Origin: Escherichia coli | GTDB lineage: Bacteria; Pseudomonadota; Gammaproteobacteria; Enterobacterales; Enterobacteriaceae | NCBI RefSeq assembly: GCF_003790525.1 | Contig: NZ_CP033635.1 | Length of the DNA stretch: 64,000 nt | Strand: one strand, 5' to 3' | Part shown: piece after piece, positions 3,660 to 44,541 of the stretch | Position numbering within the stretch: position 1 is the stretch's first letter | Layout of the letters: every line of letters begins with the position of its first letter | Program-made: the position numbers and the translations under genes | The notes under the pieces: model-generated | What the model saw: only the letters and a program-made list of their open reading frames with translations | Told to the model about the DNA's origin: nothing | Database searches by the model: none

Positions 3660-4494
<835 letters not shown>

Positions 4495-24046: not shown

Positions 24047-24078
24047 AAAAAAAAGCAGCGGTACGTCGTTACCGCTGC
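24047..24078 (-). terminator. intrinsic terminator of flhDC operon
   Basis: Hairpin gcagcggta/taccgctgc followed on minus strand by T8. Confidence 0.8.
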
Positions 24079-24104
24079 TGGAATGTTGCGCCTCACCGTA
24101 TCAG

Positions 24105-41422: not shown

Positions 41423-41880
41423 AGGAATATCTCCAGAAATAGGGATAACGCTACTGATAGTTAGTCATTCGTATATTAGCGGTTTTTATTGCAACTTTGA
41501 AACGTTAAAAATGGTGGGTATTCGATTTTTCTCTCGTTTTTGTCAATTCGATTGTCCACAGTTATGGTCACGCCCGTCACCAACGGCTTACCGGATCGTT
41601 TCACAGTAAGCCCTACGATGAAATGTGACAAAAATTGACTTTATTCAGCAAAAATGAAAATCAGCCCGCTGAATATGTAACATTAATTAACCCGAACAAT
41701 ACGGGCAAAAAACATTCATGATAAAAATATTTATTGGTCATTATATTAACGTATTTTATAGCACTGCCGATATCACGCTCAAAAAACAACCACTGCTATT
41801 TTTAGCAAAGCTTATGGTATACTCCGCCGCCTTAACATTTTTCACCGCAAATTTTCATTGCAACATGACGAGGAAAATAA

Positions 41881-42105
41881 ATGAGTACGCCTGATTTTTC
41901 TACTGCCGAGAATAATCAAGAACTGGCAAATGAAGTCTCCTGCCTGAAAGCGATGCTGACGCTGATGCTGCAGGCGATGGGACAAGCTGACGCGGGCCGC
42001 GTGATGTTAAAGATGGAAAAACAGCTTGCGCTGATCGAAGACGAAACCCAGGCTGCAGTATTTTCCAAAACGGTTAAGCAAATTAAACAAGCCTACCGTC
42101 AGTAA
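41881..42105 (+). CDS. yecF: DUF2594 protein YecF
   Basis: 74-aa [34 protein letters not shown]... Confidence 0.85.
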
Positions 42106-42171
42106 TATAAAACCGGCTGAGAGCGTGCCTTTCAGCCGGTTTTTGCATCTGGCACGCAGAAAGAAAAGCGA

Positions 42172-42894
42172 TCAAATTAAGCCAGTAGCGGCCGCGTAAC
42201 AGGCCACCTGGGTCTTATTTGGTGCATTGATTTTTTTCTGCATGTTTTTCTGATGGAAATTGACCGTATTCTCAGAGATTGACAAAATCATCGCTATCTC
42301 TGCTGATGTCTTCCCTTCCGCCGTCCATTTCAGAATTTCTTTTTCGCGCTTGCTGAAATTCATCTCTGGCGTCATCACTATTTCATCATTTAAACGCATC
42401 AGAGCCATCAGACTTTCGCGCACCAGTAACTGCATTTTTAATTGCAGTTCATCACTAAGAATGGGTATTTCGCGAGCGCTGCAACGGGAAAAGGACAAAA
42501 AGCCCAACGCCCGATTTGGCAGCATTAAATACTGAGTGACACCGCGGCGTAAACCATGTGCGCGCGCGGCTTCCCATAACGGCTGTGCTTCGCTGAATAA
42601 GTCATCATTCCACATTAAATGGCCCTGACTAAAGTTTTCAGGGTTCAGCACCGGATCAATTGCGAGAAAATTTTTTGCCTGATAATAACTAACCCACGAC
42701 TCAGGGTAATTGGTGTAGAAAGCCACTTTAGGTCGCGTGAATGGTACCGGGTGGCGAACACATAACGAATAGTAATCGTACTCCAGCTGCTGAGCCTGAA
42801 GCTCTATTTCATGGTAGACCTCTTCTGCGGCCTCCATCCTCTGAAAACGCAACAGCATCGTGCGACGCCAGCTGAAAAAATCCGTATCCTGCAT
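42172..42894 (-). CDS. sdiA: LuxR-family quorum-sensing regulator SdiA
   Basis: ORF MQDTDFFSWRRTMLLRFQRMEAAEEVYHEIELQ... (240 aa). Confidence 0.96.
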   Translation of the reverse strand: MQDTDFFSWRRTMLLRFQRMEAAEEVYHEIELQAQQLEYDYYSLCVRHPVPFTRPKVAFYTNYPESWVSYYQAKNFLAIDPVLNPENFSQGHLMWNDDLFSEAQPLWEAARAHGLRRGVTQYLMLPNRALGFLSFSRCSAREIPILSDELQLKMQLLVRESLMALMRLNDEIVMTPEMNFSKREKEILKWTAEGKTSAEIAMILSISENTVNFHQKNMQKKINAPNKTQVACYAAATGLI

Positions 42895-43123
42895 AGTAAA
42901 CCGCAACGCCCCTGAGAGTGAGTATCATTTATAATGATAATTCAAACTATCACATAAATAAGATTTATATATAATTTATATTATTCAGGCAATGAATTAC
43001 TTTTGCAAGCCATCGCATTCTCTTATGTTATTAATGAGTTATGCTGATTTGTTAAGCAGTTTTATCAGGCTTGAAATGGCGTCCCGCCCCGACAGGTGAA
43101 TCGTCGGGGCTGATTTTTTCTTA

Positions 43124-43876
43124 TTATTGCAGCAGAAACTTCTCGAGGAACTGGCGGGTGCGAGGCTGCTTGGGATCGGCAAATAACGCTTTTGCGGCCC
43201 CCTGCTCGACTATCCGCCCCTGGTCCATAAAAATCGCCCGGTCCGCAACATCCCGGGCAAAGCTCATTTCGTGCGTCACAATCACCATCGTGCGCTTTTC
43301 CTGTGCCAGCTGACGGATGGTGTTCAGGACTTCGCCCACCAGCTCTGGATCCAGCGCCGACGTTGGCTCGTCAAACAAAATCACCTCAGGACGCATTGCC
43401 AGTGCACGCGCAATCGCAACACGCTGCTGTTGACCGCCAGACAAACGACGTGGATAGCTGGTTTCTTTACCGGCCAGCCCAACTTTCGCCAGTAGCTCGC
43501 GAGCGCGCTCCGTGGCCTCTTCTTTCGGTTCGCCTTTGACGATCACCGGCCCTTCAATAATGTTTTCCAGTACCGTACGATGCGGAAACAAATTAAAGTT
43601 CTGGAAGACAAACCCGACGTGCTGACGCAACTGGCGAATCAGCGATTTTTGCTGACTTAATGAACGTGCAGTATCAATAGTGATATCGCCAACGGTGATA
43701 GTTCCCGCTTCCGGTTGTTCCAGCAGATTTATGCTGCGTAGCAACGTGGTTTTGCCGGAACCACTCGGACCGATAATTGCCACAACTTCGCCAGGCTTTA
43801 CCTCAAGGTCGATACCGTGCAGCACCGTCTGACCGTGAAATTTTTTCACCAGGTTCTTAACTTCAATGGCACTCAT
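43124..43876 (-). CDS. tcyN: L-cystine ABC transporter ATP-binding protein TcyN (YecC)
   Basis: 250-aa ORF MSAIEVKNLVKKFHGQTVLHGIDLEVKPGEVVAIIGPSGSGKTT... Confidence 0.95.
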   Translation of the reverse strand: MSAIEVKNLVKKFHGQTVLHGIDLEVKPGEVVAIIGPSGSGKTTLLRSINLLEQPEAGTITVGDITIDTARSLSQQKSLIRQLRQHVGFVFQNFNLFPHRTVLENIIEGPVIVKGEPKEEATERARELLAKVGLAGKETSYPRRLSGGQQQRVAIARALAMRPEVILFDEPTSALDPELVGEVLNTIRQLAQEKRTMVIVTHEMSFARDVADRAIFMDQGRIVEQGAAKALFADPKQPRTRQFLEKFLLQ

Positions 43877-44541
43877 TTTGGTTCTCTCTCCTGGCGATTA
43901 AGTTGATTCTCAAAATGGTTCTGCAACGTCGATAATACTGTCGCCATGATCCAGTAGATGAGCGAAGCCGCCAGGTACATGGTGAACACCTCCAGCGTGC
44001 GCGAGGTAATCAACTGCGCCTGACGGAACAGCTCCGGCACCTGGATTGTCGCGGCCAGCGACGTATCTTTTACCAGACTGATAAAGCTGTTCGACAGCGG
44101 CGGCAACGCCACCCGCGCCGCCTGTGGCAAAATCGCGCGACGCATAGTCTGCCATGGCGTCATACCAATACTGGCAGCTGCTTCCCACTGACCTTTATCA
44201 ATAGAAGAAATGGCGGCGCGAAGCGTTTCGGCGGCATAGGCGGCAGTGTTCAGCGACAGACCAATCATTGCTGACGGAATGGGATCTAATTCGATACCAA
44301 ACTGCGGCAGGCCGTAATAGATCATAAACAGTTGTGCGATGAGCGGCGTACCACGAAAAATAGAGATATAAAAACGCGCCAGCCAGCGCACGGGCCAGAT
44401 CGGCGACAGGCGCATCAGCGCGAGAATAAACCCGAGCAGTAAGCCAAAAAACATGCCGCCGATACTGAGTTGCAGCGTATACCCAGCCCCTTTCAGCAGG
44501 AACGGCAAGGAATCAATAACCAGTTGTATACTTTCTTGCAT
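43873..44541 (-). CDS. tcyL: L-cystine ABC transporter permease TcyL (YecS)
   Basis: 222-aa ORF MQESIQLVIDSLPFLLKGAGYTLQLSIGGMFFG... Confidence 0.95.
   Translation of the reverse strand: MQESIQLVIDSLPFLLKGAGYTLQLSIGGMFFGLLLGFILALMRLSPIWPVRWLARFYISIFRGTPLIAQLFMIYYGLPQFGIELDPIPSAMIGLSLNTAAYAAETLRAAISSIDKGQWEAAASIGMTPWQTMRRAILPQAARVALPPLSNSFISLVKDTSLAATIQVPELFRQAQLITSRTLEVFTMYLAASLIYWIMATVLSTLQNHFENQLNRQEREPK

Follow-up and report, generated by a model that had tools for sequence, protein, structure and literature searches.

The plus-strand hairpin and T-run between sdiA and tcyN of Escherichia coli correspond to the terminator of the small regulatory RNA SdsN

Our analyses indicate that the element at positions 43086-43119 of the window (the whole 64,000-nucleotide stretch of E. 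coli DNA that was analysed) is the Rho-independent terminator of the small regulatory RNA SdsN, a reading that we hold with a probability of about 95%. The curated record of E. coli K-12 MG1655, NC_000913.3, contains an ncRNA gene, sdsN (b4719, "small regulatory RNA SdsN"), at 1996921-1997057 (+), 4 nt from tcyN. With the local coordinate offset (window position = position in the K-12 record − 1953938), sdsN occupies 42983-43119 on the plus strand of the window, and its annotated end is the last T of a run of six. The gene lies between sdiA and tcyN (yecC), divergent from sdiA and convergent with tcyN. The window and K-12 sequences of sdsN are identical at 136 of 137 positions, the sole difference being at 43085, and both the hairpin at 43086-43110 and the U6 tract are unchanged. 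Thus, identity, position, strand and 3′ end all agree with sdsN, and the element is the SdsN terminator itself, which is already known, not a mere lookalike.

The first-pass annotation had read the element as a plus-strand intrinsic terminator flanked by two minus-strand genes, sdiA and tcyN, and had named yecF as the nearest plus-strand gene. The terminator reading and the gene assignments, yecF on the plus strand included, hold, but sdsN lies nearer than yecF; the presence of this non-coding gene explains why a plus-strand terminator is found between two minus-strand genes. The same annotation had offered, as one possibility, that the terminator ends an unannotated small transcript. A small transcript does end there, but it is not unannotated, as sdsN is present in the curated K-12 record and in the literature. 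In all 22 pipeline-annotated E. coli records that we inspected, sdsN is unannotated and tcyN and sdiA alone are given. A search of 41500-44000 against Rfam 15 with E-values up to 1 matched no family, because SdsN has no Rfam model. The sdsN region was found in 5375 of 5426 complete E. coli genomes, with 100% identity to several strains; one copy sits on a plasmid. The coordinates of the features discussed here are collected in Table 1.

Table 1. Features of the yecF-sdiA-sdsN-tcyN region in window coordinates
Feature	Position	Strand	Basis or remark
yecF	41881-42105	+	flanking gene
yecF/sdiA convergent terminator	~42110-42143	both	strong hairpin, A before and T after it on each strand
sdiA	42172-42894	−	flanking gene
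TATAAT, candidate −10 box of SdsN178	42930-42935	+	ends 7 nt before 42942
SdsN178 isoform	42942-43119	+	putative start, from published length and common 3′ end
TATAAT, candidate −10 box of SdsN137	42970-42975	+	ends 8 nt before 42983
sdsN, SdsN137 form	42983-43119	+	K-12 annotation mapped, 136/137 identity
SdsN124 processed form	42996-43119	+	putative start, by arithmetic from published length
tcyN mRNA 3′ end (K-12)	43075-43085, dominant 43077	−	TRS (PMC10687069)
Polymorphic base at stem foot	43085	+	C in window, A in K-12
Hairpin arms	43086-43093 GCCCCGAC; 43103-43110 GTCGGGGC; loop 43094-43102	+	sequence and folding
Spacer TGA and T6	43111-43113 and 43114-43119	+	SdsN U-tail and 3′ end
tcyN CDS	43124-43876	−	stop codon 43126-43124, 4 nt beyond SdsN 3′ end

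SdsN, for which the primary reference is Hao, Updegrove, Livingston and Storz (Nucleic Acids Res 2016; 44:6935; PMC5001591), is described in secondary sources as a set of RpoS-dependent, Hfq-dependent sRNAs adjoining sdiA, of which the isoforms SdsN137 and SdsN178 "share the same terminator". The targets that these sources state it to repress, by Hfq-dependent base-pairing, are nfsA, hmpA and narP; one review tags the RpoS dependence 'indirect?'. Compared with the published K-12 forms SdsN137, SdsN178 and SdsN124, the window has the same locus, strand, 3′ end, hairpin and U6, and differs at 43085. An ATG open reading frame of 35 codons, 42992-43099 (+), lies wholly inside SdsN. This is not a gene, as its reading frame is not conserved across Escherichia: its start codon is missing in one lineage, a stop follows after seven codons in two others, and its variable columns number 4, 8 and 7 by codon position, with no third-position bias.

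Read directly from the plus strand, the terminator consists of the arm GCCCCGAC, the loop AGGTGAATC and the arm GTCGGGGC, followed by TGA, TTTTTT and a C at 43120. The stem has 8 perfect base pairs, 7 of them G-C. The 9-nt loop is rather long for an intrinsic terminator, though still within the usual range, and the 3-nt UGA spacer between the 8-bp stem and U6 in the window allele is slightly non-canonical. On the minus strand, A6 precedes the hairpin and the 9 nt that follow it, GGGACGCCA, contain no T, such that this strand lacks a U-tract; a T-run on the plus strand only, as noted in the first-pass annotation, is thus what the sequence contains. A custom scan of the window for perfect stems of at least 8 bp with at least 6 G-C pairs, a loop of 3-10 nt and T6 after 0-3 nt returned three sites, whereas 60 dinucleotide-preserving shuffles gave 0.03 on average and never more than 1. 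Therefore, the hairpin with its T-run is genuine and far beyond what chance would produce. The remaining two sites that passed, 24054-24079 (−) and 3666-3692 (−), look canonical, with T7-T8 abutting the stem. A standard terminator scan (loop of at most 8 nt, T-run at most 2 nt after the stem) did not list the 43086 hairpin, because its loop and spacer limits exclude it. When folded, the plus strand of the window allele gave −16.8 to −17.0 kcal/mol, no better than shuffled sequences (z −1.3), and the minus strand was slightly more stable (−19 kcal/mol, z −3.2).

Published 3′-end maps of K-12 place transcript ends at this hairpin on both strands. The TRS study (PMC10687069) combined RNAtag-seq with Term-seq and reports ends in NC_000913.3 coordinates, for K-12 MG1655 and not for the window strain; its own samples were taken in exponential phase in LB or minimal medium, and its Supplementary Data 2 is a reanalysis of earlier published datasets. 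On the plus strand, a terminus is listed at K-12 1997053-1997062 (dominant 1997056 or 1997058) with a signal of 0.94-0.98, the label "sdsN Primary", a 10-bp stem and U6 (PMC10687069). This corresponds to window 43115-43124, with the dominant position at 43118 or 43120. The element thus combines a GC-rich stem-loop, a U-tract after the stem, and K-12 3′ ends in or just after the U-tract. The first-pass annotation had proposed 3′-end mapping near 43120, where a lack of plus-strand ends would count against a terminator; such ends are present in K-12. The minus-strand terminus, at K-12 1997013-1997023 (dominant 1997015), has a signal of 0.81-0.85, a longest U stretch of 3 and the label "tcyN Primary" (PMC10687069). 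The curated list of Term-seq ends from Adams et al. 2021, which covers three conditions, contains no 3′ end at sdsN or tcyN. The same study calls no Rho-termination region at 43086-43120, in keeping with Rho independence.

A weaker plus-strand terminus was also reported in K-12 at 1997199-1997206 (dominant 1997204; signal 0.62; significant in two of three libraries; PMC10687069). It maps to window 43261-43268, dominant 43266, antisense within tcyN, 147 nt downstream of the SdsN terminator. Either transcripts that read through the terminator or a separate antisense RNA may end there, and the signal hints at some plus-strand transcription beyond the SdsN terminator even in K-12.

In Hfq-dependent sRNAs, the terminator hairpin and the 3′ oligo-U tail form an Hfq-binding, stabilising module, and those of SgrS and RyhB reportedly act in this way. 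The SdsN terminator resembles theirs in having a GC-rich stem, a U-run of at least 6 and a place at the 3′ terminus of an sRNA for which Hfq dependence has been reported. It differs in its rather long 9-nt loop and, in the window allele, in the 3 nt between stem and U-run; Hfq binding by the SdsN tail would follow by analogy. We propose the following sequence of events. RNA polymerase would start at either of two promoters just upstream of sdiA, which is on the opposite strand, and transcription would run 137 or 178 nt toward tcyN. As the RNA is made, the GC-rich hairpin at 43086-43110 would fold, and release of the transcript at about 43114-43120, ~4 nt before the tcyN stop codon, would follow from the weakness of the rU:dA hybrid in the U-run. 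The hairpin and oligo-U tail would probably also serve as the Hfq-binding, stabilising part of SdsN and, as a side effect, sdsN transcription would be stopped from entering tcyN antisense.

The single base that distinguishes the window from K-12 lies at the foot of the stem. In the window, C43085 forms a C·U mismatch with 43111, which creates a 1×1 internal loop below the 8-bp stem, removes the ninth pair and leaves the 3-nt spacer. In K-12, A43085 pairs with U43111, and C43084 pairs with G43112, to give a 10-bp stem followed by AUUUUUU, with a single A before U6. The predicted folding energy is −21.1 kcal/mol (z −3.5) for the K-12 allele versus −17.0 kcal/mol (z −1.3) for the window allele. 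Because the C·U mismatch puts 3 nt before the U-run and the fold has a z of only −1.3, termination in the C allele may be less efficient than in K-12. Among nine sampled E. coli sequences, seven have C at 43085 (the window and six of the eight others), and one lineage has a flipped U-A pair. Exact 64-mer matches to the K-12 form were found in 511 genomes and to the window form in 227; the identity bands of the two 64-nt searches were shifted as expected if C is the commoner base. C thus appears to be the commoner E. coli allele at 43085, and the A of K-12 the minority one.

Conservation of the terminator within the genus was assessed with an alignment of 14 Escherichia sequences, consisting of the window, K-12, seven further E. 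coli alleles picked evenly along the ranking by identity, two divergent genomes that carry the label E. coli, and one sequence each from Escherichia sp., E. whittamii and E. albertii. The SdsN promoters and the first ~90 nt of the RNA are nearly invariant, the latter as expected for a pairing region, and variation is seen in the linker that precedes the terminator. Thirteen of the 14 sequences keep T6, and E. albertii has T5. The candidate −10 box of SdsN137 is likewise invariant in 13 of 14, and that of SdsN178 varies within TAnnnT or CATAAT only. In E. coli S1-IND-01-B, a natural AA-to-TT change at the equivalent of 42973-42974 converts the SdsN137 candidate −10 box from TATAAT to TATTTT. 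The stem itself shows paired changes, such as GAC/GTC becoming GGT/ACC in E. whittamii and A-U becoming G-C in strain E69. Across the alignment, 87.5% of cells are paired, compared to 24-57% when the partners are slid, and two-sided changes are seen in 3 of 10 stem pairs, a number reached in 3 of 500 shuffles. The aligned sequences thus indicate that the SdsN terminator stem is kept by compensatory changes within Escherichia.

The hairpin also bears on the 3′ end of tcyN. Since TRS termini lie on both strands on either side of it, one hairpin marks the 3′ ends of both convergent transcripts, sdsN and tcyN. The dominant tcyN end, at 43077, is 9 nt past the 8-bp core stem and 7 nt past the extended stem of K-12. 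Bidirectional terminators, as seen by SEnd-seq, are reportedly shared by convergent genes, and the element resembles them in that a single hairpin between sdsN and tcyN has 3′ ends on both strands. It differs from terminators such as that of yecF/sdiA (Table 1) in its asymmetrical flanks, an A-run and a T-run, which give a U-tract to the plus strand alone. Thus, of the two marks of a bidirectional terminator, both convergent 3′ ends at one hairpin are found in the K-12 TRS data, and an A-tract before and a U-tract after the hairpin on both strands are not, as GGGACGCCA on the minus strand has no T. With the anatomy of an intrinsic terminator complete, U-tract included, on the SdsN side only, the hairpin in the tcyN direction is probably a weak terminator or a barrier to 3′ exonucleases. 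Weak termination, trimming from a downstream end and effects of convergent transcription are possible origins of the tcyN 3′ end.

To place the element in a wider context, the sdiA locus was collected from 80 Enterobacteriaceae genomes, and the tcyN-sdiA spacer was extracted from 76. Hairpins were detected across loci by an RNAfold-based procedure, which was noisy for three Escherichia loci, for which the alignment is the better guide. In most of the 76 loci, a hairpin lies no more than about 15 nt from the stop codon of tcyN. In most of the non-Escherichia genera, the 75 nt by that stop codon (loci L007-L081) contain a hairpin that is unrelated in sequence to the one of E. coli. Outside Escherichia, Citrobacter and Salmonella, the T-rich side, if any, is tcyN-sense, with at least 6 T in 9 nt in 7 of 52 loci and at least 5 in 16 of 52. 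A clear U-tract is missing from both strands in many non-Escherichia loci, including Salmonella and most Citrobacter. On the strand equivalent to the window plus strand, none of the 71 loci from non-Escherichia genera shows 6 or more T within the 9 nt that follow the hairpin, and the SdsN body gave no alignment in Citrobacter, Salmonella, Enterobacter and the other non-Escherichia genera sampled. These two results together argue that the plus-strand T-run and SdsN go together and, in the genomes sampled, are confined to Escherichia.

Two of the collected loci carry unexpected labels. A 503-bp contig labelled Terrisporobacter mayombei encodes a protein with 98% identity to E. coli SdiA, and a 799-kb contig labelled Chryseobacterium sp. 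18061 has an enterobacterial tcyN-sdiA locus; in both cases, the public assembly appears to be contaminated or mislabelled. The comparison also revealed short blocks upstream of sdiA that are conserved across genera (42895-43010 versus loci L007-L063): GATAATCATTATTATG, CTAACACATAAAT, AAATATCGG and AATTACTTGAG. These blocks overlap the promoters and the 5′ end of sdsN, which lie on the opposite strand, and are probably promoter or regulator sites of sdiA. If they are, sdsN and sdiA transcription overlap head to head.

The cross-genus data lend some weight to the idea that the hairpin is essentially a minus-strand terminator or 3′ stabiliser of tcyN and that the plus-strand T-run is incidental. 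The proximity of a hairpin to the tcyN stop codon in most of the 76 loci and the tcyN-sense orientation of T-rich sides outside Escherichia, Citrobacter and Salmonella fit this idea, as do the K-12 tcyN terminus just past the hairpin and the minus-strand fold (z −3.2). In Escherichia, however, the minus strand has no U-tract (0 T in 9 nt), the plus-strand T6 is conserved together with SdsN, and the sdsN terminus is strong, with a signal of 0.94-0.98 versus 0.81-0.85 for tcyN. We therefore regard this idea as very improbable: a role at the tcyN 3′ end is likely as an additional function of the SdsN terminator and not tenable as its sole one.

We give scarcely any credence to the view that the hairpin exists as an insulator, which keeps read-through from yecF or transcription antisense to sdiA from entering the tcy operon antisense, a role that had been suggested in the first-pass annotation. 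The orientation is correct for such a role, any plus-strand transcription that arrived would be stopped, and plus-strand transcription antisense to sdiA does exist, because Adams et al. 2021 called a Rho-dependent region there, at K-12 1996249 (+), equivalent to window 42311. A second Rho-dependent region in that study, at K-12 1995939 (−), is antisense to yecF and equivalent to window ~42002. The two regions together imply that transcription passes the yecF/sdiA terminator in both directions. Yet Rho terminates the plus-strand transcription antisense to sdiA at ~42311, and yecF has a strong terminator of its own, common with the convergent sdiA, whose hairpin folds at −23.3 and −21.1 kcal/mol (z −6.0 and −4.7). 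The yecF terminus was mapped to K-12 1996082/3 and that of sdiA to K-12 1996039 (PMC10687069); the former corresponds to window ~42146, ~6 bases downstream of the yecF/sdiA hairpin. Because yecF has its own terminator, a read-through explanation is not needed. Moreover, a dedicated transcript, SdsN, starts 137-178 nt upstream of the 43086 hairpin's T-run end and stops at the hairpin, which would still stop any other plus-strand transcript reaching it. Finally, a functionless chance inverted repeat beside an A/T-rich stretch, with which the shuffle-like folding energy of the window-allele plus strand (z −1.3) would agree, is refuted by the ~0.03 sites expected per window, the covariation and the 3′ ends on both strands.

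With the element identified as the SdsN terminator, the cross-genus comparison permits one evolutionary suggestion, which we put forward tentatively and consider possible though doubtful: in Escherichia, the hairpin that ends tcyN elsewhere in the Enterobacteriaceae would have been taken over to terminate a newly arisen sRNA, SdsN, with its T-run on the opposite strand. If so, tcyN would have been left with a hairpin and without a U-tract, and its 3′ end would be set by the hairpin alone, by exonuclease trimming or by collisions with sdsN transcription from the other direction. The tcyN-sdiA spacer would then be an example of a new sRNA arising beside a pre-existing hairpin and sharing it with the convergent mRNA. 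For E. coli itself, the allele that appears to be the common one has a predicted terminator stem weaker than that of the K-12 reference allele used in published work, and what looked like a terminator in the wrong orientation is part of a non-coding gene, which open reading frames alone do not reveal.
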